Source: an uncultured Acidimicrobiaceae bacterium (lineage in GTDB: Bacteria > Actinomycetota > Acidimicrobiia > Spongiisociales > ZC4RG35). Taken from it: a DNA stretch of 64,000 nucleotides. The DNA is taken from positions 4,862-68,861 of the forward strand of contig CAZTXD010000002.1 in assembly GCA_964617995.1 (NCBI GenBank), in the 5' to 3' direction. Below the pieces are notes generated by a model, which worked only from the letters and a program-made list of their open reading frames with translations, was not told where the DNA came from and ran no database searches. Position numbers and translations under genes: made by a program. This document shows, one piece after another, positions 23,086 through 46,119 of this stretch; within the stretch, counting starts at the first letter, position 1; each line of letters opens with the position of its first letter.

Positions 23086-25464
<2,379 letters not shown>

Positions 25465-29953: not shown

Positions 29954-30104
29954 TGAGCCGGCGCCGCCGCAACTTGTCGGTCAAGCGGTGGGCCAGGCCG
30001 GTCGGGTCGTCTGACGGATGGGACGTGGTCTCGACGGCATCCGGTCATTCACATGCCGGTGGTAGGGATCGTCCCTCCTGGTGAGCACCGACGCCTTTCC
30101 GTCG

Positions 30105-30776
30105 TCAAGCCTCGGTTCGGATGGCGTCGAGCGCCTCGAGGACGAGATTGAGACCGAACGCGAACTCGGTGTCATAGTCGAAGACGGAGGTCGTTTCCTG
30201 CAGGGCGGCGAATTCGGCGAGATGGGAGTACTCATCGCTCTGGAAGTGTTCGAGGCGGTCTTCGGACGTCTCTCCGGGCCCGTTCGCGGCGTCGAAGGGC
30301 AGGCTCATCTCTTGGATGACATGACCGTAGACATAGCTGTCCAACACCCAGAAGGCGTGGGCGGCGGCCTCCACCGAGAAGCCACCTGCCCGCAGACTGG
30401 CGATGATGGCGTCGAGGTAGCGCAATACCGTCGGCCCGGTGGAGCCTCGGGACTCAAAAAGCCCGATCGCCCATGGATGGCGGCGCAACACCTGCCGTGC
30501 CGACACCGCCCGTTTTCGCATCGCCGTTTTCCAGTCGGACCCGGGTGTCGGGATCTCTATCTCCGTCACAACCAGGTCGACGATCCCGTCGAGGATCTCA
30601 TCCTTGTTGGCCACGTGTTTGTAGAGCGACATCGCCTCGACACCGAGCTCACGACCGAGCCGGCGCATGGTCAGGGAGTCGAGACCGCTTCGGTCGGCTA
30701 GGGCCACCGCGGCTCTCAGGACACGTTGTCTGGTCAACGGACGCCGGGGGACCGGGTTCTCCTCGTCGCGCTCCAT
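30105..30776 (-). CDS. TetR/AcrR family transcriptional regulator
   Basis: N-terminal HTH 'LTMRRLGRELGVEAMSLYKHVANKDEIL', TetR_C-type C-terminal domain. Confidence 0.85.
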   Translation of the reverse strand: MERDEENPVPRRPLTRQRVLRAAVALADRSGLDSLTMRRLGRELGVEAMSLYKHVANKDEILDGIVDLVVTEIEIPTPGSDWKTAMRKRAVSARQVLRRHPWAIGLFESRGSTGPTVLRYLDAIIASLRAGGFSVEAAAHAFWVLDSYVYGHVIQEMSLPFDAANGPGETSEDRLEHFQSDEYSHLAEFAALQETTSVFDYDTEFAFGLNLVLEALDAIRTEA

Positions 30777-30784
30777 CTTGACAG

Positions 30785-30816
30785 CTTACTAAGTACACCC
30801 TAGATTACTTAGTAAG
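30785..30816. promoter_or_regulatory. Perfect 11-bp inverted repeat (candidate TetR operator) in divergent promoter region
   Basis: CTTACTAAGTA-N10-TACTTAGTAAG between TetR (30776, minus) and membrane protein gene (30839, plus). Confidence 0.6.
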
Positions 30817-30838
30817 CCAACACGGAGACAGATGTGAC

Positions 30839-31354
30839 ATGTCCGCGAGGACGAACAATCCAAGAAAGCAGAGGGTACGAATGACCGCAGAAACGAAGTT
30901 CGACCCGTCCACCGTGAGCGTGAGGGTCAAAATCTCGGCGCTCTGGACGTCGATGCTGTTCGTCTTCGCCTACGTCGACCTCTTCAGCCTCTACCGACCC
31001 GACTTCCGGGCCGACATCGAGGCTGGCGAAATCAGTGGGTTCGCCGTCAACCAGGCGTTCCTTTTCGCGACCACCGCCTATGTTGTCATTCCCAGTCTCA
31101 TGGTGTTCTGCGCGCTCATCCTGCGACCACGAGTCAACCGAATCCTCAACGTCGCGCTGAGCATCATCTACGCGCTCACCATCATCGCCGGCGCGATCGG
31201 CGAGTGGAGCTACTACGTCTTCGGCAGCGCGACCGAGGTGGCCCTCCTCGCGGCCATCGCGTACTACGCCTGGACCTGGCCGAAAGAAACCCCATCAACC
31301 GCCACGACCGGACCAGAGCCGACCCCTCACCACATCCAACCCAGCGCTCCGTAG
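30839..31354 (+). CDS. Small membrane protein (DUF6326-like)
   Basis: 171 aa, four hydrophobic helices; divergent from TetR. Confidence 0.5.
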   Translation: MSARTNNPRKQRVRMTAETKFDPSTVSVRVKISALWTSMLFVFAYVDLFSLYRPDFRADIEAGEISGFAVNQAFLFATTAYVVIPSLMVFCALILRPRVNRILNVALSIIYALTIIAGAIGEWSYYVFGSATEVALLAAIAYYAWTWPKETPSTATTGPEPTPHHIQPSAP

Positions 31355-31540
31355 CGCACCAGCAGGCCGCCACCTTCGTCCGCCCCGACGCGCTGGTCCA
31401 ACGGTGCGAGTCGTGCAATCCCGGTCCGGTCACCGAAATCGAACGGGGCCGGTCGCGCCCTGGATCAGGCGGGCTCTCTTGCAGATGGCATCGCTTTCCC
31501 TGGTCAGCCAGTACCCCGGCCTGCTGATACGCTGCGCTGC

Positions 31541-32506
31541 ATGACAGACACCGTTGTGGTGATCGACTGGCTTCTCGACTCCGACCCTTCGATCAGGTGG
31601 CAGGTGATGCGCGACTTGCTCGACGCTCCGGAGTCGGAGTGGACGGCGGAACGAGCCAAGGTGGAGACCGACGGCTGGGGAGCCCGGCTCCTGTCCTACG
31701 AGGACGAGGACGGGCAATGGGCGGGTGGCGCCTTTCTCCCCAGAGATTTCGACGTCCGCGAGTGGCGCGAGGTCGGTCAGCCGTGGACGGCCACGACATA
31801 CTCGTTGTCGCAGCTCCGGGAGTTTGGTTTCGATCCCACGTCGGAGCGGGCCAAACGAGCTGTCGAATTGATCGGCGCCAACTCACGCTGGGATCACGAC
31901 GGCCAGCCCTTCTGGGAGGGGGAAGTCGAGGAGTGCATCAACGGCCGGACCGTTGCCGACGGCGCCTATTTCGGAGTCGACATTTCGTCCATTGTCGACA
32001 GGCTGATAGGCGAGCGTCTCGACGACGGCGGCTGGAACTGTGAGAGGATCAACGGCTCGGTCCGCTCGTCATTCGCCAGCACGATCAACGTGCTGGAAGG
32101 GCTCCTCGAATACGAGAGAGCCACCGGGGGCACGCCTGAATCCCGGGAGGCGCGCCAGTCGGGTGAGGAGTATCTCCTGGAGCGCAACCTCTTCCGCCGT
32201 CTCAGCACGGGTGAGCCGGCAGACGAGCGCTTTCTCCTGTTCCTGCATCCGAACCGCTGGCGCTACGACGTCCTCCGAGCACTGGACTACTTCCGGTCTG
32301 CCGCCATCCTGACCGGGGCCGCCCCCGACCCGCGGCTCGGCGAGGCTATCGACCACGTTCGTTCCAGACGATTGGAGGATGGCACCTGGCCTCTCGACTG
32401 GAGCCTGCCGGGGCGGGTGTGGTTCGATGTCGACGACGGGGAGGACCAGCCCTCCCGTTGGGTGACCTTTCGGGCGATGCGGGTGCTCAGATGGTGGGAG
32501 GGTTAG
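31541..32506 (+). CDS. Prenyltransferase/squalene-oxidase-repeat (terpene-cyclase-like alpha-alpha toroid) protein
   Basis: 321 aa with repeated QW-type motifs (DEDGQWAGG, DDGGWNCE, EDGTWPLDW). Confidence 0.55.
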   Translation: MTDTVVVIDWLLDSDPSIRWQVMRDLLDAPESEWTAERAKVETDGWGARLLSYEDEDGQWAGGAFLPRDFDVREWREVGQPWTATTYSLSQLREFGFDPTSERAKRAVELIGANSRWDHDGQPFWEGEVEECINGRTVADGAYFGVDISSIVDRLIGERLDDGGWNCERINGSVRSSFASTINVLEGLLEYERATGGTPESREARQSGEEYLLERNLFRRLSTGEPADERFLLFLHPNRWRYDVLRALDYFRSAAILTGAAPDPRLGEAIDHVRSRRLEDGTWPLDWSLPGRVWFDVDDGEDQPSRWVTFRAMRVLRWWEG

Positions 32507-32718
32507 CGCCGATCGGGAAACTCCCACCAGGTCCACCAACGTTCCCTCTGGTGTGAGATCTCACCTGCTCGTACCGGTGGCGAGGAACGGTGGGTCACCT
32601 CGCCGGTGGCGAGGTCGATGACAAGAAAGGTCTCCTCGGGCATGGCCGGCTCACAGGGGCCTTTACGACTTTCAGTTCGAGCAAGTCCCGGTAACGCTCC
32701 CCCTCGGGGTTTTCACCT

Positions 32719-34662
32719 ATGGCGGCGCTTCATCGGCGGCGACAGACTGCCGATATGGGGCAACCCGAAGAGATGACCGTGATGGCGCAACAACCGATCT
32801 ACATCACCGGAGTCGGCGCTTACCTGCCCGGCGAGCCGGTCGACAACGACCACGTCGAGGCACGTCTGGGTGCCCTGACTCAGGGTTCCGACCGGCTACG
32901 GACCCGGATGCTGGAGGCGAACGGCATCATCACCCGCCACTACGCCCTCGACGGGAACGGGAACACCACGATGCTCAACGAGGAGCTGGCAGCGCGGGCC
33001 ATCCGCGCGGCAGTCGAGCATCGCGGCATCGGGCTGGAGGAGGTTGGGATGCTGGCCGTCGGCACCACCCAGGGTGACCTGCCGGTCCCCGGATTCGCCT
33101 CGATGGTCCATGGGCGGCTGGGAGGAGGCCCCAAGGAGATCCTGTCGGCCGGGGGCGTGTGCTGCTCGGGCGTCGCCGCCCTCTCAGCCGCCGGGGACGC
33201 CGTCCGGCTGGGGCGTCACCGGACGGCGGTGGCGGCCGGGTCGGAGCTGGTGTCCCGGGCGTTGCGAGCCTCGAGGATGGAGCAGGCGATGAACCGGGAC
33301 AGGCGGTCGGCGTTCGGAGCGGAGTTCCTCCGCTGGATGCTGTCGGACGGCGCCGGGGCGATGGTCGTCGAGGACCGGCCCCGCGCCGACGGCCCGTCCC
33401 TACGCATCGACTGGTCGCTCCTCGAGTCGCACGCCCACCGGTTCCCCGTGTGCATGTACGCCGGCGCCGTCGATGCCGACTCGGTGCGGGCGGGAAGCAC
33501 GTGGCAGGACATGTCCACGGCGTCGGAGGCCGATGCCGGGGCGCTGCTCAACCTGCGCCAGGATGTCGCCCTCCTCGACGGCGTGGTGGCCTTGGGGGTG
33601 GAGCGCTACATCGAGCTGGTCCGGGACGGTCACCTCGACCCGGACGGCATCGACCACCTCCTCTGCCATTACAGCTCGGAGCATTTCCGAGGCGACATCG
33701 TCAAGCTGATGTCGGAGGCGGGCCTGATGATCCCCGAGGATCGATGGTTCACCAACCTCCACACCAAGGGCAACACCGGTGCAGCCAGCATCTACATCAT
33801 GCTGGATGAGGCGCTCAGGACCGGCCGGTTCGCCGAGGGCGACCGGATCCTGCTGATGGTGCCCGAGTCGGGGAGGTTCTCTGTCTCGTTCGTCCAGCTC
33901 ACCTGCGTGGGTCCCGATCGGCCCGACCAGGTCGAAACCGGACCCCGAGTGGCTGTCGCCGACCCGGCCCCGATCCATCCCGTCACCTCTCCTTCGGGCT
34001 CCCCCAACGAGTGGCTGCTGGCGGAGCTGGGGCTGGTGTGGGCCCGCTTCGAGCAACGCTTGAGCCGGGTCCCGATGGTGAGCCGCATCGAGAACCGCGC
34101 CGCCACCCGGGAGGACTACCTCCGTCTCCTCTTGAACATGCGCCAGCAGGTGATGGAGGGCGCTCGCTGGATAACCCGGGCGGCCTCCAACCTCACGGTC
34201 GAGCACACCGATCTGCGTGCCGAGTTCATCCAGCACGCCGCCGAGGAGCAACGCGACTTCCGCATGCTCGAGAACGACTACGTGGCCTGCGGAGGGGACC
34301 GGGAGGAGATCATCTCGGGGGAGAAGAACGTGGGCTCGGAGGCGCTGTCGGCGTTCATGTTCCAGCAGGCGGACCAGGTCAACCCGCTCGACCTGCTGGG
34401 GGGGATGTACATCATCGAGGGCCTGGGGGCCAACAAGGCCGACCGCTGGGTCGACCTCCTCCGCGAGCAGCTCGACCTGAGTGACGACCAGGTGACGTTC
34501 CTGCGCTACCACGGGGGCGCCGACCAGGCGCACACCGAGGAGATGTTCGAGGTACTTCGCTCCGACATCATCACGTGGGAGGTTGCCCGCTCGATAGTCA
34601 AGACGGCCAAGGTCGTCGCCCGCCTCTACGCCCTCCAGCTGGAGGAGATCGACCATGTCTGA
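32719..34662 (+). CDS. 3-oxoacyl-ACP synthase III (FabH-like) fused to C-terminal heme-oxygenase-like (TenA/PqqC/HDO-fold) domain
   Basis: N-terminal ~380 aa: FabH-like triad context GGVCCSGVAAL (Cys), LLCHYSSEH (His), NTGAASI (Asn); C-terminal ~240 aa with ExxH/DxxH pairs (EFIQHAAEE, DQAHTEE) like diiron HDO enzymes; start probably internal (MTVMAQQPIYITGVG). Confidence 0.7.
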   Translation: MAALHRRRQTADMGQPEEMTVMAQQPIYITGVGAYLPGEPVDNDHVEARLGALTQGSDRLRTRMLEANGIITRHYALDGNGNTTMLNEELAARAIRAAVEHRGIGLEEVGMLAVGTTQGDLPVPGFASMVHGRLGGGPKEILSAGGVCCSGVAALSAAGDAVRLGRHRTAVAAGSELVSRALRASRMEQAMNRDRRSAFGAEFLRWMLSDGAGAMVVEDRPRADGPSLRIDWSLLESHAHRFPVCMYAGAVDADSVRAGSTWQDMSTASEADAGALLNLRQDVALLDGVVALGVERYIELVRDGHLDPDGIDHLLCHYSSEHFRGDIVKLMSEAGLMIPEDRWFTNLHTKGNTGAASIYIMLDEALRTGRFAEGDRILLMVPESGRFSVSFVQLTCVGPDRPDQVETGPRVAVADPAPIHPVTSPSGSPNEWLLAELGLVWARFEQRLSRVPMVSRIENRAATREDYLRLLLNMRQQVMEGARWITRAASNLTVEHTDLRAEFIQHAAEEQRDFRMLENDYVACGGDREEIISGEKNVGSEALSAFMFQQADQVNPLDLLGGMYIIEGLGANKADRWVDLLREQLDLSDDQVTFLRYHGGADQAHTEEMFEVLRSDIITWEVARSIVKTAKVVARLYALQLEEIDHV

Positions 34663-35500
34663 CAGCTCACTTGTAGCCTTCGTCGACCGTCCCGGGCCGT
34701 CTATCTGGGATGCCCTTGCCGGGGATCCCACCCACCACCTCAGCCGGCATTCGTTGTCGTTGCTGGAACGCGACGCCAACCGTTGGTCCGCCCGCTACCT
34801 GCGACCTCCCGCCCGGCTGATATCGAGGGTCCTCGTGGGGATCATCACCCTCCTCAAGCGGCTCCTGCCCGGGGACATGTCGTCACACCGCACGCTCGAC
34901 AGGCTCGGCGTCTGGTTCATGTCTAGATTCGTTTCGGAGGAGGGCGGGGAACTGCTCATGCGCCATTTCATCCTCGAGACCAACGTGCTGGCCTTCATCG
35001 CTCGCAACGCCGGTCTGGAGGAGCCGACCCTGCGACCTACCACCCTCGGTCAGCTCGGCGACAACGCGGTGGTGGTCCACGACGTCAACGTGTACGAGCT
35101 GCTCAGCGGGTTGGCCAACAAGCCGCTGCCGAGACCGGAGGACAGGACGTCGCCGCTCGATTTCACGATGCTCGATGTGACCCCCGTCGACACCACCGGC
35201 AAGCGGCGATGGATGCGTCTCGACCTGGAGACCGCCCTGGCGTGCATGAATGTGGCGTTCGCCCTCTTCACTACTGCCGAGGAATACCGGCGGGCGGTCC
35301 ACTCGCTGCAACTCGACGAGTCGTTGCTCGGGTGCCTTGCCGAGCTCACCGGCGATGAGCTGTTCCGAATCTGGAGGCCGGCCGGCTACGTGGCGATCGT
35401 GCGGACCAACCGCGACGTGCCCCGTGACCTGTTCGCCCACGCCATCGTCCACGAGTACGCCCATGCCCGCCTCGAGTGGCATGCCCGGAGGGCCGGTTAG
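34655..35500 (+). CDS. Hypothetical protein, translationally coupled to FabH-HDO fusion
   Basis: ATGTCTGA overlap (start 34655, upstream stop 34662); 281 aa, no recognised motif. Confidence 0.55.
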   Translation: MSDSSLVAFVDRPGPSIWDALAGDPTHHLSRHSLSLLERDANRWSARYLRPPARLISRVLVGIITLLKRLLPGDMSSHRTLDRLGVWFMSRFVSEEGGELLMRHFILETNVLAFIARNAGLEEPTLRPTTLGQLGDNAVVVHDVNVYELLSGLANKPLPRPEDRTSPLDFTMLDVTPVDTTGKRRWMRLDLETALACMNVAFALFTTAEEYRRAVHSLQLDESLLGCLAELTGDELFRIWRPAGYVAIVRTNRDVPRDLFAHAIVHEYAHARLEWHARRAG

Positions 35501-35812
35501 AGGCGTGCTCCGCGGGGAGGCTGTCCGTGTCGCCCAATTCCGGGCACCCCACGAGGAGAGCGCCGATACCACAACGGCCTGGGGTGGTCTCGAGGAGCAC
35601 CTCGACCCGGACAGATGGTCGTCGATAAGCTGAACGCCCAATCTCGAGCCGTACAACAGGTGGCACGCGGGTGACGAATGACGCGGAGATCCATGTATTA
35701 GGCGAGGCTTCCGCGGGCAGGATCGATGAGATGTCCATCGTATCATCGCACGGGATTGCGATTGGGGCGGACCGGCGGTCTCGATCCCGAAGTTCACCGA
35801 GGAGGTGTCTCG

Positions 35813-36475
35813 ATGAGTGAGAGAAGAACCACGGCCCGGGTGTTCCACGAAGCGGACGGGGTCGATGACTGGCGGGTCCTCTATTGGGGTGCGTACGCCT
35901 ACTACCGCACCGGGTCGTTCTCCGAGGGGGCGCGCTTCGTCGCCGCGGTCGCCGAGATTGCTGAGACAACAGGGCATTTCCCCGACGTCGACCTGCGCCC
36001 GGAGGGGGTGACGGTCCGGACGTTCTCACGCGAGGACGGATCGCTGAGCGAGCGCGACATCGACTTGGCTACGCGCATTTCGGCGGTGGCTCGGGAAAAC
36101 GGACTCGAGTCCGATCCATCGCAGGTGCAGGCCGTCGGCATCGCTGTGGCACACGACGCCGGTGTCGACGTGCGGCCCTTCTGGGCGGCGGCGTTCGGCT
36201 ATCGACACCTCGGAGCGGAGGACGCGATCGACCCGCACCGGCGCAACCCGCATCTCTGGTTCCACGAGCTCGACCCCCCGAAGCCCAGAAGGGGTCGCGT
36301 CCACATAGACGTCAGCGTTCCGGCCGATCAGGCGAAGGTGCGGGTAGCGGCTGCGCTCGCCGCGGGCGGACGAATCGTCGACGACTCCCACGTGCCCGGA
36401 TGGTGGACGCTCGTCTCTCCCGAGAACCACGGAGTCGACATAGCAGCGTGGCCGGACTTCGAGGACGAAGGCTGA
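35813..36475 (+). CDS. Pterin-4a-carbinolamine dehydratase-like / VOC fusion protein (intact paralogue of 6151-6804)
   Basis: ATG 35813 after GGAGG; PCD-like 'TGHFPDVDLRPEGVTVRT', C-terminal VOC-like 'RVHIDVSVPADQAKVRVAAALAAGGRIVDD'. Confidence 0.65.
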   Translation: MSERRTTARVFHEADGVDDWRVLYWGAYAYYRTGSFSEGARFVAAVAEIAETTGHFPDVDLRPEGVTVRTFSREDGSLSERDIDLATRISAVARENGLESDPSQVQAVGIAVAHDAGVDVRPFWAAAFGYRHLGAEDAIDPHRRNPHLWFHELDPPKPRRGRVHIDVSVPADQAKVRVAAALAAGGRIVDDSHVPGWWTLVSPENHGVDIAAWPDFEDEG

Positions 36476-36670
36476 GACCCAATCGACGCGAGGCGGAGCA
36501 CCCAGTGGTATCGATGCCACGCACAGGGCGGCCACGAACACCACCCACGAGATGGAGTGATCCTCCCCGGTTTCCACAGGCGCGGTACTCGAGTCTCGAC
36601 CGCCCAACGGTCAGAAGAGGGAGGACGGCCCATGCCCCCTCCCTCGACCGTGTTCAGGAGGCGATGACTG

Positions 36671-37432
36671 CTAGCCGCTGACGGTGAACTCCCGCACCAT
36701 GCCCTGGATGAAGTGCGGGGGCCCGTCGGCGGCCTCTGCCTCCTCGAAGGAGGTGGCCCCGGTGGGGATGAAGCAGATGATGACGTAGCGTCCGGACTCG
36801 AGGTCGGCGTACAAGGTCGACCCGTCACCCGGAGCTGCGAACGCCACCCCTCTGAACGTTGCCTTGTCCTCCACCTCCTCCTCGGGCAGCTCGAGCAGCT
36901 CCTCGATGGTCTCGGTGGTGTCGTCGTTGATCCGGATCAACGCCATCTCGTGCAACTCGGTCCCGTTGTTGGTGAAGTCGAAAGCGGTCATGCCCCCACC
37001 AACGGCATCGAGGTCGGCGTCGTAGGCATAGTCGATGGCGTCCACCTCGACGGTGGCGAACCCGCACTCGTCTCCGATGAACCCGTCGACGACCGCCGAG
37101 TCCTCGGCGAAGCTCGCCGATTCCGTAACGACGAAGAACGCCTCCTCGTCGAGGTCGGCTACCGGCGCGAGAAGGGCGTCGGCCATCCCGTTGACGGCTG
37201 AAGCTATCTCCGTCGGGGCGTTGGACTTGAGATCCTCGAGGCCGGCGGTGACTTCCTCGACCCACGGCACGGGATCGGCCTCATCTGGGCCGAAGTCGAG
37301 CAGCGTGCTGACTTCGATGTAGTCGTCGCAGAAGGCCCCCACCTCGGCACTGGGGCCGCTGCTACAAGCGCCAATCGTCAATCCAGCCACCAAGACCATG
37401 ACTCCTACCGTGGACGTGCGCGAAGCACTCAC
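36671..37432 (-). CDS. Secreted lipoprotein, acidic, unknown function
   Basis: Signal peptide with lipobox LTIGAC; Asp/Glu-rich mature protein. Confidence 0.6.
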   Translation of the reverse strand: MSASRTSTVGVMVLVAGLTIGACSSGPSAEVGAFCDDYIEVSTLLDFGPDEADPVPWVEEVTAGLEDLKSNAPTEIASAVNGMADALLAPVADLDEEAFFVVTESASFAEDSAVVDGFIGDECGFATVEVDAIDYAYDADLDAVGGGMTAFDFTNNGTELHEMALIRINDDTTETIEELLELPEEEVEDKATFRGVAFAAPGDGSTLYADLESGRYVIICFIPTGATSFEEAEAADGPPHFIQGMVREFTVSG

Positions 37433-37498: not shown

Positions 37499-40230
37499 TC
37501 ACCACTGCCGCAGCAGCCAGAGCTCCGGCTCCCAGTCGCCCGAGGCGATGTCGGCGAAGAGCGTGACCGCCTGGGTCAGAGAATTCTCGGCCTCCTCCTT
37601 CCGTCCCGACTGGTGGTGGAGGTCAGCAAGGTGATTGAGGAGTGCCGCCTGATGGTGGCGGTATCCGGCCCGGTCGGCGATGGCCACCGCCTCGGTGACC
37701 ATCTCGACGGCCTCATCCAGCTCTCCGGCATCAGCGAGCAGATGTGCCTTGTTGTTGAGAGCTGCGATCCGGGCCGGTTCCGTGGAGCCGGCCATCTCCA
37801 GGGCATCGTCGACATGCTCTGTCGCCTTCTCCGGGTCGGGGTCGACGACGGCCAAGATGTTGTAGGCGCGGGCGACGAGCACGGGGTCTCGTTTCGCCTC
37901 TGCGGCTTCGAGAGCGGTCGTGGCGAAGGAGATGGCGGCTTCGGCGTCGCCCGTCCGGTGCTTGAGCAGCGCCCAATCGGCATACAGATCCGCCGGCTCA
38001 GGGTGGTCACGGCGAGCACGGGTGAAGCTCTCCTCGGCGAGTTCGAACCTACCGAGGATGCGGTAGAGGTCGCCGATGCGGTGTTCGACCAGGGCAAGAT
38101 CCGCGCCGGTGAAGTGTGAGGCGGCGGCGCGCAGTTCGCGCTTGGCCACCTGATAGTCGCCTCGGGCCATCGCTAGCTCACCGAGGGCAAGGCGCAGCCG
38201 TCCCATGTCGGGATGGCCGAGGGCGATCGCCATCTCATAGGAGGTGACCGCCTCGTCGTGGGCGTAGACAGCGCGGGCCAGATCTCCCGCCGACATGTAC
38301 CACGAAGCTGCGTCCTCACTGCCGGCTGCGTGCAGCTGGGCGGCGGCGGCCGTGGCCAGACGTGCATCGGACCGGACTCTGGGTTTCGCCAGGAGGGCCT
38401 CGGCGGCACGCCTGTGCAGGAGACGACGTCGGATCAACGACGTGGACTCGTAGCACATCGTCTCCAGGGCATCGAGGGTGAATCCGAGCTTGCCGTCTTC
38501 GTGTTCCCGCAGAAGGCCCGCTGAGATGAGCTCTTCGACCGCTTCGACTATCTCGTCTTCGGTGCGTCCGCTGGTGTCGCGCAGGAGCTGGGCGTCGCAG
38601 ATCCCGTCGAGGACTGCCGCCGCCGCCATTATCTGATGGGCGAGATCGGAGAGACGTCGACGTTTCGAGTCCATGTACTTCTGAACGCTCTCCGCGTCGG
38701 GGTTCACCACTCCGTCCGAGTCGAGTGCTTTCTTGACCAGGAGCGGTATGCCGCCGGTGGCGGCGATGATGGCTTCAACGTCGGTCTTCGGGTAGTCGTC
38801 GTGCAGGCTGGACGGGGTGAGAGGGTCGAGGACGAGCATCTCGTCGGGCTCTGTTGCGATCTCCCTGACGGCGGGATGCAGCGAGCCCACGTCTCGGGTG
38901 GCGACGACGAGAAGGAGAGGCAGGTTCCCAGCGCGTCGATGCACATAGGACACGAGGTGGGCCGACGCCGCGTCCATCCACTGGGCATCATCGATGGTCA
39001 CCACCACCGGCCCATTGGCAGTGGCCGGCTCCATCAACTCGAGGAAGGCCTCACGGAGACGGAGCTCTCCGAGGCTGCCCGATTCGCCTTCGGCCGCACC
39101 AGGCGCCAGCTTGGGATCGAGTCGGGTGAGCTCGGTGAGCGCCCACTCGGGGACGTTCAACTCGCCGCCGTTGTTGCTCGACACGAAGCCATCCAACAGC
39201 TGGGTGGCGACCCCGTATGGGAGTTGCGAGTCGGGACTGAAGGCCCTGCCTGAGACGATGGAGACTCCGAGATCTCGGGAGAACTGCACGAGGTACTCGA
39301 TCAATCGGGTCTTTCCCATCCACGAAGCTCCGGAAATCACCAAGAGCTTCCCCGGCGGGGAGATCGTATCGACGAGTCGGCGCAGCGTCTCCATCGCCTC
39401 CTCACGGCCGATCATCCCTGCCTCGACCGGCGACTCGGCGAGGCGGTGGGCCCTGACCGGCTTCCTCACTCCCGGGGCCGGCGGCAGATCCTCGTCGAGG
39501 ATGGCCTCGAAGAGCTCGGTGGTCTCATCGAGTGGGGGGACACCGAGCTCGCGATCGAGGACCGCCACACAATCGCGATAGGCCTGGATCGATCCCGGTC
39601 GATCACCGGCCCAGGCACAGAGAAGCATCAACAACCGGTGAGCGGGCTCGTGCAGCTCGTCGAGACGGATCCACCGAATCGCCGCAGCAGTCGCCTCGCC
39701 GTAGTCGCCGGAGCCAGCATTCCCCATCGCAAGACGTTGGAACACGTCTCCGGCCTCGAGACGGAGTGACTCTGTGACCATTCGGGCCCAGTCCTCGAAG
39801 TCCGGTGCCTCTCTCACCGAGAAGGCGCCGAGAAAGTCACCTCGGTAGAGGTCGGCCGCTTTACGGAGATGGGGAAGACAAGCCGGGCACACGTCGTGGA
39901 CGTCGTGATCATGTTGCCCGGTGGCCTCGACTTCGGTCCGGAACTGGTGGACGTCACAGATGAACCCGTCCTCGATCGTCACCCGGTTCCGATCGGCGTT
40001 GATCCAGTCCGCCCCGATCCCGCTGCGGAGAGCAGAGAGCGTCCGGCGCAAGGTGGCCCTCGACCTCTCCGGGGATGAATCGGCCCAGAAGAGCCCGGCG
40101 AGAGCATCACGGTCGGCACTGCGCTCGATGGCTAGATAGGCGAGCATGGCGATGGCCTTGCGCGTGTCCACCTCGACGTACGCCGAGTCGGCGGTCACCT
40201 CCGGCGACCCGAACAACCGTATTTCGAGCA
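37499..40230 (-). CDS. SARP/AfsR-family regulator (OmpR-type DNA-binding + BTAD + NB-ARC ATPase + TPR)
   Basis: Start placed at MLEIRLFGSPEV (ATG 40230); P-loop GASWMGKT; C-terminal TPR-like repeats. Confidence 0.85.
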
Positions 40231-40360
40231 TGCGATGACTTTCCCATTCGAAAATAGTCGATGCGTTACGGCAAGCGGATCTCGGCCACTTCGTGACGGG
40301 GCCAGCGACTGAGGCCATTTCCGTTGCGCTTACGTAACGAGGTCATGGCATCGTTGCGCC

Positions 40361-41548
40361 GTGATCGATCCCAGGAGAGTGGTTAGTCGGCGCGTAGCCC
40401 TCCACACCAGAGTCGTTTTGATCGCGGCGTCGACGGCCTTGATCGCGTATCTCCTCGGAGGGGCGCTCGGATGGTGGTCCGCGCTGGAGGGCGTGGAATC
40501 GTTGGTGATCATTGGGGCGTCGCTGATCTTCGTCGCTGTCGGTTCCTTGATCATCGGTAAGGCGGACTCGAACCGGGTTGGCTGGGTATTCGCCCTGGTC
40601 GGGATATCCATCCTGTTGTCCGGCGTGACCGGAGGGCTCGCCGACCGGGGCCTCCTCGTGTTCGACGCCATCGGTGGGGCGTTCTGGCTCTCCTGGCTCG
40701 CCGCGGTCGGGTTGGTGGTTCTCTGGTATCCCACCGGAAGACCAGCCAGTTCGCGATGGATCTGGGTCCAGTGGCTGGGATTTGTGTTGATCGGGCTCAC
40801 CTTCGTTCTCTATGTGTTTGCTGAAGAACTGTGCTCGGAATTCTCGGAGCCCCAAGGGTGCATCGGCTACGTGGCGAATCCGATCGGTGTCCCCGCTGTC
40901 CCCAATCCGGAGTTCGGCTGGATATCAGGCCCGCTCTTCGCTGGCGTCGCTGTGTTCCTCCTGTCATCGTTGGCGTCCCTGGTAACGAGATTTCGCCGAG
41001 CCAGGGGGGTGGAACGTCTTCAGCTCAAGTGGTTCCTGCTCGCCTGCACGGTCTTCGCAGTCGCGTTCGCGGGGACGATCTCCTACGAAGCGTGGTCCGG
41101 TCGGGCTTCCCCCTTTTGGCTCGGCATTCTCTTCCAAGTGGCGATCCTGGCGATGCCGGTGACAGCGACCCTGGCCATTCTCCGCTATCGGCTCTACGAG
41201 ATCGACCGGATCATCTCCCGGACGGTGTCGTATGCGCTGGTGGTGGGTCTGCTCGGGTTGCTGGTGGCCGGTGTGGCCGCGGTCGCCGGCTCGCAGTTCG
41301 AGACACCTTGGGTGGTGGCGGCCACCACGCTGGGGATGGCGGCGTTGTTCAACCCGGTGCGGAGGAGAATGCAGATCTGGGTGGATCGTCGTTTCAACCG
41401 GTCTCGCTATGACGCCCAGCGGGTGATGGACGAGTTCGCCGGTTCGTTGCGTGAGCGCGTGGACGCCGATGAGGTGGTTGAGGGATGGCTCGGGGTGGTC
41501 GACTCCACGATGCAACCTGCGGCTGTGGGTGTGTGGGTGAGGCAGTGA
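40361..41548 (+). CDS. Polytopic membrane protein, paralogue 1 of five-member tandem family (conserved C-terminal module)
   Basis: GTG 40361; FPTGR motif (YPTGRP), RLQLKW, C-terminal ILRYRLYEIDRIISRTVSYALV...VDRRFNRSRYDAQRVMDEFAGSLRERVD...QPAAVGVWVRQ. Confidence 0.8.
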   Translation: MIDPRRVVSRRVALHTRVVLIAASTALIAYLLGGALGWWSALEGVESLVIIGASLIFVAVGSLIIGKADSNRVGWVFALVGISILLSGVTGGLADRGLLVFDAIGGAFWLSWLAAVGLVVLWYPTGRPASSRWIWVQWLGFVLIGLTFVLYVFAEELCSEFSEPQGCIGYVANPIGVPAVPNPEFGWISGPLFAGVAVFLLSSLASLVTRFRRARGVERLQLKWFLLACTVFAVAFAGTISYEAWSGRASPFWLGILFQVAILAMPVTATLAILRYRLYEIDRIISRTVSYALVVGLLGLLVAGVAAVAGSQFETPWVVAATTLGMAALFNPVRRRMQIWVDRRFNRSRYDAQRVMDEFAGSLRERVDADEVVEGWLGVVDSTMQPAAVGVWVRQ

Positions 41549-42708
41549 TGGCGACGGACTCGATGCGTCGCCTCGGAGGAATCGCCATGGCTGTCTCGGC
41601 TCTTCTGCTGGGTGGGGTGAGTTTCGTATCGGCCCCGGAAGAACCGGTGGCGGTGGTGGTACAGCAGTTGGTGTTTGCCCTGGTCACGATGGGTGTGGGG
41701 CTGCTCCTCGTGTTGAGGCGGCCCGGGCACAGGATTGGCTTCGTGATGCTGGCCCTTGGCCTTTCCTTTTCGATGATGGGCATGGGTCAGGCACTGACAC
41801 GCGTCTCTCACCAGGTCGGAGACATGAGCCGAGCAGTCATTTGGGCTCAGTTCGAAGGAGTCGGTTGGGTCTTCTTCATCCTGACACTGTTCAACCTACT
41901 CCCTCTGTGGTTTCCCACGGGGAGGACGGCCAACGTCTTCGGGCAGTGGGTCCTCAGAGTCGCGCTGGCCGTGGCCATCGTTGGGGTGTTGGGCACTGTC
42001 TTTGCCGAAAGAACTTGCGTCTCTTGGCCGGCTGGGGGTGTCGGTGACGACTGTCTTGAGTTCGCCGCCAGCTCCTGGGGGTTCCTGGAGTACTCTGTCG
42101 GTGAGGTTGCCGGTCAGGCCGTCTTGCTGCTCACGGGCCTGATATCGCTCCTCACCCTCGGATATCGCTTCGTCCGCGCCAGGGGAACGGAGCGACAGCA
42201 GTTGAAATGGTTCGCTTTCGGATTCGCTTTGTTCGTCGTGGCCCTGGGGGCATCGCTGGTTCTGGGTACCAACATGGACTTGGTCATCTGGACCGCCATC
42301 GGTGTGGTGCCAGCTTCGATAGCGCTGGCGGTGCTTCGCTATCGCCTCTACGAGATCGACCGGATCGTTTCGAGGACGGTGTCGTACGCCCTGGTCGCAG
42401 GTCTGCTCGGGTTGCTGGTGGCAGCGGTGGCCGCGGTCGCCGGGTCGCAGTTCGAGACCCCTTGGGTGGTGGCGGCGACCACTCTGGCGGTGGCTGCAAT
42501 GTTCAACCCGCTTCGGCGGAGGGTTCAGGGATGGGTGGACCGTCGTTTCAACCGGTCTCGATACGACGCCCAGCGGGTGATGGATGACTTCGTCGGGTCG
42601 TTGCGGGATCGCGTCGACGCCGACGAGGTGGTCGAGGGCTGGCTCGGGGTCGTCGATTCCACGATGCAACCGGCAGCCGTGGGCGTGTGGGTGAAGGTAC
42701 CGGGGTGA
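41548..42708 (+). CDS. Polytopic membrane protein, paralogue 2
   Basis: ATG overlaps upstream TGA (TGATG); same motif set (FPTGR, RQQLKW, RYRLYEIDRIVSRT, DRRFNRSRYDAQRVMDDF, GVWVK). Confidence 0.8.
   Translation: MATDSMRRLGGIAMAVSALLLGGVSFVSAPEEPVAVVVQQLVFALVTMGVGLLLVLRRPGHRIGFVMLALGLSFSMMGMGQALTRVSHQVGDMSRAVIWAQFEGVGWVFFILTLFNLLPLWFPTGRTANVFGQWVLRVALAVAIVGVLGTVFAERTCVSWPAGGVGDDCLEFAASSWGFLEYSVGEVAGQAVLLLTGLISLLTLGYRFVRARGTERQQLKWFAFGFALFVVALGASLVLGTNMDLVIWTAIGVVPASIALAVLRYRLYEIDRIVSRTVSYALVAGLLGLLVAAVAAVAGSQFETPWVVAATTLAVAAMFNPLRRRVQGWVDRRFNRSRYDAQRVMDDFVGSLRDRVDADEVVEGWLGVVDSTMQPAAVGVWVKVPG
42463..42584 (+). repeat. ~122-bp tract identical to 44729-44850 (paralogue 2 vs paralogue 4)
   Basis: TGGGTGGTGGCGGCGACCACTCTGGCGGTGGCTGCAATGTTCAACCCGCTTCGGCGGAGGGTTCAGGGATGGGTGGACCGTCGTTTCAACCGGTCTCGATACGACGCCCAGCGGGTGATGGA present in both copies. 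Confidence 0.85.
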
Positions 42709-43844
42709 GCAGACACCAGCGGGAGACCGTGAATATGGCCCTACTCGTGATGGCGGTGGTCCTGGCGATGCTCGGTGTGTTGGCCGGTGTCTTTTTCGGC
42801 GGGCTGGAGCCGGGCGACGAGCTGTGGCCACTCGGATGGGTGATGTGGGCACCCGTCGGCGCTCTCATCCTCTGGAGACGGCCCAGCAACGGAGTCGGAA
42901 CGATCATGCTGGCCATCGGCCTGTGTTGGGGGCTCGGCTTCCTTGCAGTTGCGTTGGCCGAAAGCCCGGCTCAGTTAGGCGTCCGGGTGTGGGCCGAGCT
43001 GGTCAGTCTCCTGCTCGGTGTGCTTCCCTGGCTCGGGATCATCTGGCTCCTTCTCGTCTTCCCCACAGGACGGCTTCACGGGCGTCTGGAGCGGATCACA
43101 GGGCTCGGGTTGTTGGCGCTCGCCATCCTCGGGGTCGTCTCCTTTGCGAGCAGCCCTGAACCCATGGAATCGACGGGTGTGCAGAGTCCGCTCGCCGTAC
43201 CGTGGATGGAGTCCTTGACCACCTGGTTCATCAGCGAGAGCGGGTTTCTCGTCGTGATCGTCGTCATAGCGGCTTCCATCGTCTCGCTGGCTCTTCGCTG
43301 GCACGCGAGCAGCGGGATCGAAAGACACCAGTACCGATGGCTCCTCCTCGGGGCACTCTTGTTCGTCTCGATCCTCGGCATTGGTCAGGTGGTCCCCGAA
43401 GACAGCCTCGCCGGGTTCACCTGGGTCGTGGCCGGGGCCGCCATACCGGTGTCTGTGGGCGTCGCCGTGTCTCGATACCGCCTGTTCGAGATCGATCGGA
43501 TCATCTCTCGGACGGTGTCGTATGCGTCGGTGGTTGCGGTGCTGGCTGCCGCGGTCGCCGGCGTAGCTGCCCTGGCGGGCTCCCAGTTCCAGGAGCCCTG
43601 GGTGGTGGCCGCCACCACGCTCGGGGTGGCGGCCACGTTCAATCCGGTGCGGAAGCGAGTTCAGAGCATCGTCGATCGTCGATTCAATCGATCGAAGTAC
43701 GACGCCGAGCGGGTGGTCGCCGAGTTCGCCGGGTCGTTGCGTGACCGTGTCGACACCGACGAAGTGGTCGAGGGCTGGCTCGGTGTTGTCGACTCGACGA
43801 TGGAACCGGCAGCCGTCGGCGTGTGGCTGAGGGGGGCACGATGA
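42705..43844 (+). CDS. Polytopic membrane protein, paralogue 3
   Basis: GTG overlapping upstream stop (GTGA) or ATG 42735; motifs FPTGR, RHQYRW, RYRLFEIDRIISRT, DRRFNRSKYDAERVVAEF, GVWLR. Confidence 0.8.
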   Translation: MSRHQRETVNMALLVMAVVLAMLGVLAGVFFGGLEPGDELWPLGWVMWAPVGALILWRRPSNGVGTIMLAIGLCWGLGFLAVALAESPAQLGVRVWAELVSLLLGVLPWLGIIWLLLVFPTGRLHGRLERITGLGLLALAILGVVSFASSPEPMESTGVQSPLAVPWMESLTTWFISESGFLVVIVVIAASIVSLALRWHASSGIERHQYRWLLLGALLFVSILGIGQVVPEDSLAGFTWVVAGAAIPVSVGVAVSRYRLFEIDRIISRTVSYASVVAVLAAAVAGVAALAGSQFQEPWVVAATTLGVAATFNPVRKRVQSIVDRRFNRSKYDAERVVAEFAGSLRDRVDTDEVVEGWLGVVDSTMEPAAVGVWLRGAR

Positions 43845-44977
43845 ATCGATCCCCGATGGCGTCGATCGGATTGGCCCTGACCTTCGCGATGGTCGCTGGA
43901 ATGGTCACCGTCGCTGCGGTCGGTGGCCAACTGGTGGCAACGTACCTGGTGGCGGGGCTGCTGATGTCGATCGTCGGTTGGCGAATACTGATATCGCATC
44001 CCCGTCATGGCGTGGGTCGCCTGCTGATGGTGGCCGGAGTCTCGGGCACCGCCCTCTCGTTCTGCATGCCGTACGCGCAGCTCTCCTTGTCGAGTGGGCG
44101 GCTTCCGGGGGAGTGGGTAGCAGCATGGGCCGGTTCGTGGATCTGGGCGGTCCAACTCGCATGCCTGCCGGCCTTGCTATTCGTCTATCCGTCGGGACGG
44201 GCATTGGGGAGGTGGCGATGGGTCTTCAGGGTGTGGGTGGCGGCTGTGGCTGCGGTCATCTTGACCGGCGCCGTGCAGCTGGTTGGGACCAGCGCCGGTG
44301 AGATGGTCGCCCAAGCCCGGCCCGGTGCTCCCGAGCTTCCCGAATATCGGTTTCTCAACGACGCCGCGCCATTGCTGATCATGTTCCTGGGCTTTCCCCT
44401 TGGGGGCGTTTCCTTCTCGCGACGTTGGGTAGGCGGGGGTCTGGAGACTCGTCACCAGATGAAGTGGCTGGCTCTCGGCCCCGTGGCGATGGCGATGGCC
44501 CTGGTGACGATGGAGGTGCTGGACGCACCGCCGGTGGTGTCCGGCGTGGCCTGGGCCACCGCACTGACCGTGTTCCCCCTTGCGATCGGTATGGCGATCC
44601 TCCGCTATCGCCTCTACGACATCGACCGGATCATCTCGAGGACGGTCTCGTATGCCCTGGTCGTTGGACTGCTCGCCCTGGCCGTAGCAGCGGTGGCGGC
44701 CGTCGCCGGGTCGCAGTTCGAGACTCCCTGGGTGGTGGCGGCGACCACTCTGGCGGTGGCTGCAATGTTCAACCCGCTTCGGCGGAGGGTTCAGGGATGG
44801 GTGGACCGTCGTTTCAACCGGTCTCGATACGACGCCCAGCGGGTGATGGACGACTTCGCCGGCTCGCTCCGGGACCCGGTCGATGCTGATGGTGTGATCG
44901 ACGGCTGGGTGTGGGTAGTGAGGGGCACGATGGAGCCGGGGGCCATCGGAGTCTGGGTCAGGGACCACCCCGAATGA
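43841..44977 (+). CDS. Polytopic membrane protein, paralogue 4
   Basis: ATGA overlap; motifs YPSGR, RHQMKW, RYRLYDIDRIISRT, DRRFNRSRYDAQRVMDDF, GVWVRD. Confidence 0.8.
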   Translation: MNRSPMASIGLALTFAMVAGMVTVAAVGGQLVATYLVAGLLMSIVGWRILISHPRHGVGRLLMVAGVSGTALSFCMPYAQLSLSSGRLPGEWVAAWAGSWIWAVQLACLPALLFVYPSGRALGRWRWVFRVWVAAVAAVILTGAVQLVGTSAGEMVAQARPGAPELPEYRFLNDAAPLLIMFLGFPLGGVSFSRRWVGGGLETRHQMKWLALGPVAMAMALVTMEVLDAPPVVSGVAWATALTVFPLAIGMAILRYRLYDIDRIISRTVSYALVVGLLALAVAAVAAVAGSQFETPWVVAATTLAVAAMFNPLRRRVQGWVDRRFNRSRYDAQRVMDDFAGSLRDPVDADGVIDGWVWVVRGTMEPGAIGVWVRDHPE

Positions 44978-46119
44978 GCCTTCGTTCCTCGCTGATCGTC
45001 GTGGCCGCGGTGGCATACGTCGTGGCTGCGGTGACCGTCACCCTCATGTCGGGGCCCATTCCGCCGTTCCCGTGGGATCCGTTCTGGCTCAACTGGGTCG
45101 GTTTCCCGGTGGTGGGAGCCCTGATTCTCCTCAAGAAACCGGGGAACAACATCGGCAGGATCCTTCTCGCCGTCGGCGTGACCGTTGCCATCTCCAATGG
45201 GTCCGTGCTCGCCGAGCTACTCGGTGCGCCCCGGTCCGACCTCTACGCGTTGGCCAGCCAGCTCGCCCTGATGCCGATAGCCGTGTTGATCCCGAGCCTC
45301 GTACTCCTGTTCCCAACCGGGTTGATCCCAACGCGATGGTGGCGGCATGGCATCCGGCTTGCCTGGGGCGCCGACGCTCTGCTCATCATGTGGTACATAG
45401 TGCGGCCTCACCCAAACCCAGGGGCAACAGAAGGCGTCTGGCACCCGAACCCACTCGGGGTCGAGGCCTTACGCTCCCTGGAGGGTGCGGTTGTCGGGTC
45501 GGCCGGGGTGGTGTTGGCTGTCTTTGCGGCCGCGACGGTGACCCACGCGGTGGTCAGCTACCGGAGGGGCTCGGCCATCGAGAGGCATCAGGTGAGGTGG
45601 GTCCTGTTCGCCGCGGTGGTGACGCCACTCCTGTACCTCGTCGGCACCTTCCTCGAATCCCAGGTGTTGTGGCTGGGAAACGCATTGGTCGCCTCTGGCT
45701 TGCTCCTGGGAGCCAACGCGGTGGCGGTCGCGATCGGGGTGGCGGTGTTCAAATACCGGCTCTTCGACATCGACCGGCTCATCTCGAGGACGGCTTCTTA
45801 CGGGTTCGTGGTGACTCTCCTCGCGTTCGGGTTCTTCGGGATCTCTGCCCTGGTGGGTTCCCGGACCTCGGAGAGGCCGCTGTTCGTGGCCGCGGCCACC
45901 CTCGTTGCTGCCGCCCTGTTCAACCCGCTGAGAACCCGTATGCAGCGCTGGGTCAACCGACGGTTCAACCGATCGACCTATGACGCCGAGATGGTCATGT
46001 CCGAGTTCGCTGGCTCGCTGCGCGAGGGCATCGACATCGAAGGTGTCATCGATGGCTGGGTGGGTGTCGTGGGAGAGACCATGGAGCCGGGAGCCATCGG
46101 GGTATGGGTCCGGGACTGA
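44974..46119 (+). CDS. Polytopic membrane protein, paralogue 5
   Basis: ATGA overlap; motifs FPTGL, RHQVRW, KYRLFDIDRLISRT, NRRFNRSTYDAEMVMSEF, GVWVRD. Confidence 0.8.
   Translation: MSLRSSLIVVAAVAYVVAAVTVTLMSGPIPPFPWDPFWLNWVGFPVVGALILLKKPGNNIGRILLAVGVTVAISNGSVLAELLGAPRSDLYALASQLALMPIAVLIPSLVLLFPTGLIPTRWWRHGIRLAWGADALLIMWYIVRPHPNPGATEGVWHPNPLGVEALRSLEGAVVGSAGVVLAVFAAATVTHAVVSYRRGSAIERHQVRWVLFAAVVTPLLYLVGTFLESQVLWLGNALVASGLLLGANAVAVAIGVAVFKYRLFDIDRLISRTASYGFVVTLLAFGFFGISALVGSRTSERPLFVAAATLVAAALFNPLRTRMQRWVNRRFNRSTYDAEMVMSEFAGSLREGIDIEGVIDGWVGVVGETMEPGAIGVWVRD

Follow-up and report, generated by a model that had tools for sequence, protein, structure and literature searches.

A Ketosynthase Fused to a Heme-Oxygenase-Like Dimetal Oxidase and Its DUF6999 Partner: A Possible DarA-Independent Variant of the Dialkylresorcinol Pathway

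Introduction

What could take the place of the aromatase DarA when a DarB-type ketosynthase (KS) is encoded without it? Dialkylresorcinols and cyclohexanediones are bacterial signals and antibiotics. The question is raised here by a gene that fuses a KS to a heme-oxygenase-like dimetal oxidase (HDO) domain and overlaps a gene for a DUF6999 protein, in a stretch of 64,000 nucleotides (nt) from an uncultured Acidimicrobiaceae bacterium (GCA_964617995.1, contig CAZTXD010000002.1, positions 4,862 to 68,861, forward strand; the window hereafter). In the canonical route, DarB/StlD works with the aromatase DarA/StlC/BrtC, which converts a carboxy-cyclohexanedione (carboxy-CHD) to a resorcinol with decarboxylation (PMC6836626; bioRxiv 2022.10.20.513026). 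According to a 2026 preprint, disubstituted resorcinols are still formed through a ketosynthase of the DarB type plus an aromatase of the DarA type, the listianol cluster among them using canonical DarA and DarB (PMC13192835). We propose, tentatively and at a little under an even chance, that the KS-HDO and DUF6999 operon is a DarA-independent variant of the dialkylresorcinol/cyclohexanedione pathway in which the HDO domain would aromatize the KS product.

The Fusion and Its Distribution

An earlier note, made from the window's letters, had described the gene as a FabH-like ketosynthase joined to a putative diiron oxidase domain. All five motifs quoted in it were located in the translation of the open reading frame (ORF), with GGVCCSGVAAL (residues 145-155), LLCHYSSEH (314-322) and GNTGAASI (351-358) in the KS part and EFIQHAAEEQRD (502-513) and DQAHTEEMFE (602-611) in the HDO part, and the division into two domains was borne out, a variable linker separating the KS from the helical domain (Table 1). 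The true start is likely M22, as homologues begin just before the AYIT motif and the database protein P0001, 100% identical to the window fusion protein, is 626 aa long. The same architecture recurs in over 120 clusters of database proteins (65-81% identity), those with names coming mostly from metagenome-assembled genomes (MAGs) of Acidimicrobiia. G+C content is uniform around the gene at about 65%. The KS-HDO fusion is confirmed as real and widely conserved. An assembly or frameshift artefact was considered as its source and ruled out, since the fusion is kept across hundreds of independent assemblies.

The HDO subfamily is a small one, judging from the 438 representatives, among 1.84 billion, that were returned when the C-terminal domain was searched exhaustively; some of these are fusions about 630 aa long, with identities reaching as low as 33%, and others are only about 240 aa long. 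A scan of one genome per species located relatives in 379 species, and the carriers include Acidimicrobiia, Gammaproteobacteria (Steroidobacteraceae), Myxococcota (with cultured Myxococcus and Corallococcus), Acidobacteriota, Alphaproteobacteria, Chlorobi-like bacteria, Leptonemataceae and others. From these species genomes we fetched 80 loci, clustered the neighboring ORFs of the 43 long ones and assessed residue invariance on 37 fusions. In all 80 loci where the sequence extends, the position directly upstream of the HDO is taken by a DarB-like KS, and in nearly all of them the downstream side holds a DUF6999 homologue (24-88% identity). Only two genes are universal among the long loci, namely the fusion, a single ORF of about 625 aa in 41 of 43 across many phyla, and DUF6999 (43/43); the clustering found no universal acyl carrier protein (ACP), ligase, reductase or transporter gene. 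In Pseudoalteromonas sp. THAF3 and P. ruthenica the KS, HDO and DUF6999 are encoded by three separate abutting or overlapping genes, the stand-alone HDO being 47% identical to that of the window. That the genes are split here and fused elsewhere supports the KS, HDO and DUF6999 as one functional unit.

Extras are lineage-specific and comprise a histidine kinase with a LuxR-type regulator, a fatty-acid desaturase and DUF2834. In some Myxococcota and Acidobacteriota, among them Corallococcus terminator and two MAGs (one Pyrinomonadaceae, one Archangiaceae), the KS-HDO gene is separated from DUF6999 by the membrane fatty-acid-desaturase-family gene (about 290 aa, PF00487). A histidine kinase and a LuxR/GerE-type response regulator often flank the module in Acidimicrobiia (11 loci), not in this window, and the pair might serve to sense what the module makes. 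Two unusual proteins were also seen. P0250 (868 aa, NCBI MEZ4288825.1) is an apparent KS-HDO-DUF6999 triple fusion with only the N-terminal half of DUF6999, which could be real or could be a frameshift, the two genes normally overlapping by 4-8 nt. P0379 (605 aa) is a distant member of the HDO subfamily (31% identity) fused to an enoyl-CoA hydratase/crotonase domain, and hints that the subfamily may generally be coupled to acyl-thioester chemistry.

The Ketosynthase Domain

Pfam returned generic KAS III and thiolase matches only on the KS domain, and the StlD/DarB beta-ketosynthase model of NCBIfam (NF005293) matched residues 27-397 end to end (E 3e-114, 382 bits), the next best NCBIfam family being FabH (E 1e-25). 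The best solved relative is Photorhabdus StlD (PDB 5gk0, E 2.6e-75), at about 40% identity over 373 residues; Bacteroidota DarB-like proteins are 41-42% identical to StlD. Residues C148, H317 and N352 align with StlD C126, H302 and N337 (native numbering, equal to chain numbering minus 20) and E176 aligns with a conserved StlD glutamate, all four (Cys148, Glu176, His317 and Asn352) being invariant in the fusions from many phyla. These comparisons place the N-terminal domain in the StlD/DarB lineage of head-to-head ketosynthase/cyclases, with an intact active site. The earlier description was right about a KAS III-type Cys-His-Asn triad, but the enzyme is of the StlD/DarB type and not a generic FabH.

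The family model scores vary along this lineage. The true Burkholderia DarB scores 600 bits on NF005293, for which the curated cutoff is 450, and HDO-fused KSs from other phyla score 463.5 (L063, above the cutoff), 434 (L073) and 433 (L057), while a Streptomyces KS partnered with DarA scores 382 bits, equal to the window KS. A score under the cutoff does not imply different chemistry, given these fusions at 433-463.5, one of them passing, and the DarA-linked Streptomyces KS at 382. In a neighbor-joining tree the HDO-linked KSs and the DarA-partnered Streptomyces KS form a clade whose sister group comprises StlD, DarB and the DarB-like proteins of Bacteroidota.

This placement bears on an idea of the kind that the earlier note had put forward, namely a different condensation, giving an OleA-like beta-keto acid or a PpyS-like pyrone, with the HDO forming an olefin or ketone by UndA-type decarboxylation and with no cyclohexanedione or resorcinol involved. 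It would fit with the HDO-linked KSs clustering apart from StlD/DarB and mostly falling under the curated cutoff, with the sequence relationship that can be detected between UndA and the HDO subfamily (E 6e-6), and with the enoyl-CoA hydratase fusion of P0379, which suggests acyl-thioester or acid substrates. We regard it as improbable, however, since the StlD/DarB model is matched end to end at an E value far beyond that of the next KS family, one fused orthologue exceeds the cutoff, and a DarA-partnered KS with the same score falls within the same clade, so that the clade is compatible with carboxy-CHD formation.

The Oxidase Domain and Its Metal Site

The C-terminal domain passes the threshold of Pfam PF14518 over residues 482-637 (46 bits vs. 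28.9), and its AlphaFold model (17 family sequences) is all-helical, with a pLDDT of 94 and a pTM of 0.89, and has the seven-helix heme-oxygenase-like fold. For its structural relatives the figures were 25.1 for PDB 3dde, 23.8 for CADD, 20.7 for HrmI, 19.0 for UndA, 17.3 for BesC and 14.5 for SznF. When the model was compared with HDO structures, its fold and ligand columns matched those of CADD and UndA, in agreement with the helical fold first suggested for this domain. Of the six canonical ligand positions, five hold the standard residue (E510, E567, H598, D602 and H605), the last three completing an H-x3-D-x2-H motif, and the second holds Asp513 in place of His. All six residues are invariant in the fusions. 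The same invariance extends to H506, one helical turn upstream of E510, and to the additional carboxylates E480 and E541. In alignment, E510/D513/E567/H598/D602/H605 share columns with E81/H88/E142/H174/D178/H181 of CADD and with E101/H104/E159/H194/D198/H201 of UndA, which we take to be the ligands of those enzymes. The mapping is based on the alignment, the canonical motif (PMC11363339) and a check of numbering via CADD Lys152 (PMC13108848). That motif, E-H-X-H-D/E-H, is found in about 85% of HDO groups (PMC11363339) and corresponds to a set of three His and three carboxylate ligands (PMC13108848). Distant stand-alone relatives and 3dde retain E-E-x-x-H where the fusion family has Asp513. 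Overall, the HDO domain probably carries a variant dimetal site.

It is conceivable that the C-terminal domain is no turnover oxidase at all, but is instead metal-free (TenA/PqqC-like), is an appendage with a structural or regulatory role, or sacrifices itself in a single turnover as CADD does. The heme-oxygenase-like fold includes metal-free enzymes, the scores of TenA and PqqC are high, CADD ranks second among the structural matches and one canonical His ligand is absent. We nonetheless consider this very improbable, as nine His, Asp and Glu residues on the ligand helices, including the H-x3-D-x2-H motif, are invariant from Actinomycetota to Proteobacteria, and the sequence profile reaches the metal enzymes CADD, MboA, UndA and BesC more significantly than TenA.

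As a separate observation, stand-alone heme-oxygenase-like proteins are labeled "3-oxoacyl-ACP synthase" in the PDB (3bjd) and in UniRef (Pseudoalteromonas HDO clusters). These labels were probably carried over from KS-HDO fusions as a propagated misannotation.

The Missing Aromatase and the DUF6999 Partner

As DarA references we took a Burkholderia protein (from a darA-darB-acp locus) and a Streptomyces protein, both encoded at plasmid-borne loci annotated as darAB and both listed under the database name "dialkylrecorsinol condensing enzyme." The two are homologous to each other (36% identity, E 1e-48), and the DarA/StlC family combines a flavodoxin-like N-terminus with C-terminal hydrophobic helices. 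No homologue of either reference was found within the window or across the 80 related loci. Likewise, there was no significant ACP match within the window and none among the conserved neighbors of the 43 long loci; it should be noted that a dedicated ACP is not strictly defining, as the bartoloside cluster also does without one (PMC6836626).

The DUF6999 protein matches PF22523 above its gathering threshold (E 1.7e-70, 237.7 bits, profile positions 2-272 of 275). It is helical, with a hydrophobic helix and conserved polar residues (R103, H104, N118, H142, D143, H262, E267 and H270), and it showed no match to any solved fold and no recognizable catalytic fold or cofactor motif. The Pseudoalteromonas partner scores 322 bits on DUF6999 and does not keep the HExxH-like motif. 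DUF6999 was also considered as a divergent DarA and rejected by BLASTP (E 1.0), hhalign (probabilities of 0.5% and 0.2%) and NCBIfam.

The universality of DUF6999 invites a reading in which the roles are exchanged, whereby the KS would make carboxy-CHD, DUF6999 would replace DarA as a decarboxylase/aromatase or thioesterase, and the HDO would be a tailoring oxygenase that hydroxylates, desaturates or cleaves the ring or side chain, yielding for example a hydroxy-quinone or an oxidized cyclohexanedione signal. DUF6999 is as strictly kept as the HDO (43/43 loci) and has conserved His, Asp and Glu residues, known HDOs hydroxylate, desaturate and cleave C-C bonds (PMC13108848), and the non-canonical Asp ligand may signal chemistry unlike that of UndA. 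We think this exchange unlikely, though it is the strongest of the alternatives: DUF6999 lacks a recognizable catalytic fold or cofactor motif, its HExxH-like motif is not kept in Pseudoalteromonas, and the KS is fused to the HDO and not to DUF6999, which argues for the HDO as the first to receive what the KS makes.

Proposed Pathway

In the pathway that we favor, with the HDO domain as aromatase, the KS would load a beta-ketoacyl thioester on Cys148 and join it to an alpha,beta-enoyl thioester by Michael addition and Claisen cyclization, giving 2,5-dialkyl-4-carboxy-cyclohexane-1,3-dione, the carboxy-CHD. The substrates would be drawn from primary fatty-acid metabolism, as no ACP or ligase gene is conserved. 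The labile beta-keto acid may then be handed straight to the fused HDO domain, where its carboxylate would bind metal site 1 by analogy with other HDOs, in which substrates ligate Fe1 (PMC13108848). Activation of O2 could drive an oxidative decarboxylation like that of UndA, an HDO that acts in this way on fatty acids (PMC11350588); CO2 and the neighboring C5 hydrogen would be lost, a C4=C5 double bond would form, and the oxidized product would tautomerize to the 2,5-dialkylresorcinol, the HDO thereby replacing DarA. Covalent fusion might serve as channeling that outcompetes spontaneous non-oxidative decarboxylation to a dead-end cyclohexanedione. DUF6999 would act after or alongside aromatization, and might release the thioester, tailor the product further or deliver the lipid to the membrane. 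A lipid context, seen in the desaturase gene inside the module in some lineages, speaks for this pathway.

Several points weigh against it. The window KS lies under the curated NF005293 cutoff, and the separate clade of the HDO-linked KSs, seen in a simple neighbor-joining tree, may possibly mean a modified condensation product. Asp513 replaces His at the second ligand position, a motif without characterized precedent among the E-H-X-H-D/E-H groups (PMC11363339), and the metal content and reactivity of such a site could differ. The nearest structures are 3dde, whose function is unknown, and CADD, a self-sacrificing para-aminobenzoate (pABA) synthase, UndA being 12% identical. DUF6999, as universal as the HDO, could be the aromatase, and the chemistry of both proteins is something we infer. 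Additionally, some other DarB homologues are likewise without DarA and their products are unknown (PMC6836626).

A broader proposal, which we find possible but rather doubtful, is that the module is a phylum-spanning unit not recognized before, extending over Acidimicrobiia, Myxococcota, Acidobacteriota, Steroidobacteraceae and Pseudoalteromonas, in which an E-D-E-H-D-H HDO would carry out O2-dependent decarboxylative aromatization of a channeled beta-keto acid and DUF6999, with a new fold, would complete a hitherto unknown family of resorcinolic or quinonoid lipids or signals. If this is true, a polyketide-like beta-keto acid would be a substrate class new for HDOs.

Novelty and Implications

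The KS and HDO domains each belong to known superfamilies, and their combination looks undescribed. Our literature search found no description of DUF6999, of a KS-HDO or DarB-HDO fusion, or of an HDO in resorcinol or cyclohexanedione biosynthesis. An HDO review of March 2026 counts about a dozen validated enzymes, all acting on amino or fatty acids and none of the kind described here (PMC13108848). A clade fused to a KS and bearing an unusual ligand motif would enlarge the superfamily's range of chemistry and of metal sites alike. For one large group of DarB homologues without DarA, the module would offer a concrete answer in the form of an oxygen-activating HDO joined to the ketosynthase. As a compact two-gene cassette present in cultured Myxococcus, Corallococcus and Pseudoalteromonas, it is experimentally tractable. 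Its product may also matter in soil and marine communities, considering that dialkylresorcinols and cyclohexanediones serve as signals and antibiotics.

Other Features of the Window and Related Loci

The features are collected in Table 1. An Rfam scan of positions 30000-37000 found no RNA family or riboswitch at E <= 0.1. The gene just upstream of the module encodes 321 aa with repeated Trp/Gly-rich motifs and no Pfam or NCBIfam family, and a gene of similar size without a family also precedes the fusion gene in L002. Some 2 kb downstream of the module lies a gene for a regulator of 939 aa with BTAD, AAA_16 and TPR regions (SARP/AfsR-like), between the module and a tandem array of membrane-protein genes; no link between it and the module is conserved in other genomes. 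The array consists of five partly overlapping genes for paralogous hydrophobic proteins (about 385-407 aa, 33-56% identical, no Pfam family), and across the region the AT skew is strongly negative (about -0.26) and the GC skew positive. Further upstream, a protein of 792 aa with two ABC/UvrA-like ATPase regions and a DnaJ-type CXXCXGXG zinc-finger segment looks like a UvrA paralogue.

Among the related loci, seven from "uncultured Acidobacteriota" MAGs (L013, L016, L020, L023, L026, L032 and L034) match the Acidimicrobiia type at 73-74% identity, L026 and L001 are one and the same contig of 617 kb, and one locus (L050) is labeled a Methanobacteriota archaeon. The taxonomic labels of these Acidobacteriota and Methanobacteriota bins look unreliable.

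Table 1. Positions of the features described, in the window or in the related locus named; residues are numbered on the 647-aa ORF.
Feature	Sequence	Position	Strand	Remarks
KS-HDO fusion ORF	Window	32719..34662	+	647 aa plus stop, from ORF list
Probable true start of fusion gene	Window	32782	+	ATG (M22); 626-aa product
StlD/DarB-like ketosynthase/cyclase domain	Window	32791..33909	+	Residues 25-397; NCBIfam NF005293, PDB 5gk0
KS key codons	Window	Cys148 33160-33162; Glu176 33244-33246; His317 33667-33669; Asn352 33772-33774	+	
Interdomain linker	Window	33910..34008	+	Residues ~398-430; Pro/Ala/Ser-rich; length and sequence vary across aligned homologues
HDO domain	Window	34009..34659	+	Residues 431-647
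Predicted ligand codons	Window	E510 34246; D513 34255; E567 34417; H598 34510; D602 34522; H605 34531	+	
Further invariant HDO residues	Window	E480 34156; H506 34234; E541 34339	+	
DUF6999 gene	Window	34655..35500	+	281 aa; 8-nt overlap with stop of fusion gene
Non-coding stretch upstream	Window	32507..32781	+	Probable 5' leader of two-gene operon
Gene just upstream of module	Window	31541-32506	+	
SARP/AfsR-like regulator gene	Window	37499-40318	-	
Tandem membrane-protein array	Window	40361-46119	+	
UvrA-paralogue-like protein gene	Window	23086-25464	+	
DarA reference	L003	4039-4995		
DarA reference	L004	7151-8116		
Inserted desaturase gene	L074	7626-8504		PF00487 family
Inserted desaturase gene	L080	8645-9520		PF00487 family
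Inserted desaturase gene	L081	8647-9519		PF00487 family
Histidine kinase/LuxR-type flank	L001	10863-12658		
Histidine kinase/LuxR-type flank	L002	10714-12473		

Comparison With Known Systems

The HDO domain can be set beside several relatives. The closest in structure, 3dde (Sden_3740 of Shewanella denitrificans, a heme-oxygenase-like DUF), retains the canonical E-x-x-H and has no KS fusion. CADD (CT610) is an Fe/Mn pABA synthase that sacrifices itself by spending its own Tyr and Lys, and it too has no KS fusion. UndA stands alone, whereas the window domain is fused to a KS and has Asp, not His, as its second ligand; UndA's substrate is a linear fatty acid, and that presumed here would be a cyclic beta-keto acid. 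In SznF the partner is a cupin and the reaction is N-oxygenation of an amino acid, whereas the window domain is joined to a KS of the thiolase fold, and nothing points to nitrogen chemistry. What the fusion shares with SznF and other multidomain HDOs is the joining of an HDO to another catalytic domain; in these enzymes an auxiliary helix supplies a further carboxylate ligand (PMC13108848), and by analogy the invariant E480 and E541 could act in the same manner.

The comparison with DarABC/StlCDE is the closest for the module as a whole. The window module differs in having neither a DarA homologue nor a dedicated ACP, in the fusion of its KS to an HDO followed by DUF6999, and in a KS clade that is sister to canonical DarB, with the window copy under the curated cutoff. 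The likenesses are that its KS is a full-length homologue of StlD and Burkholderia DarB (about 40-44% identity) with the same triad and an aligned Glu, and that both systems are small, tightly coupled operons whose substrates are probably fatty-acid intermediates.

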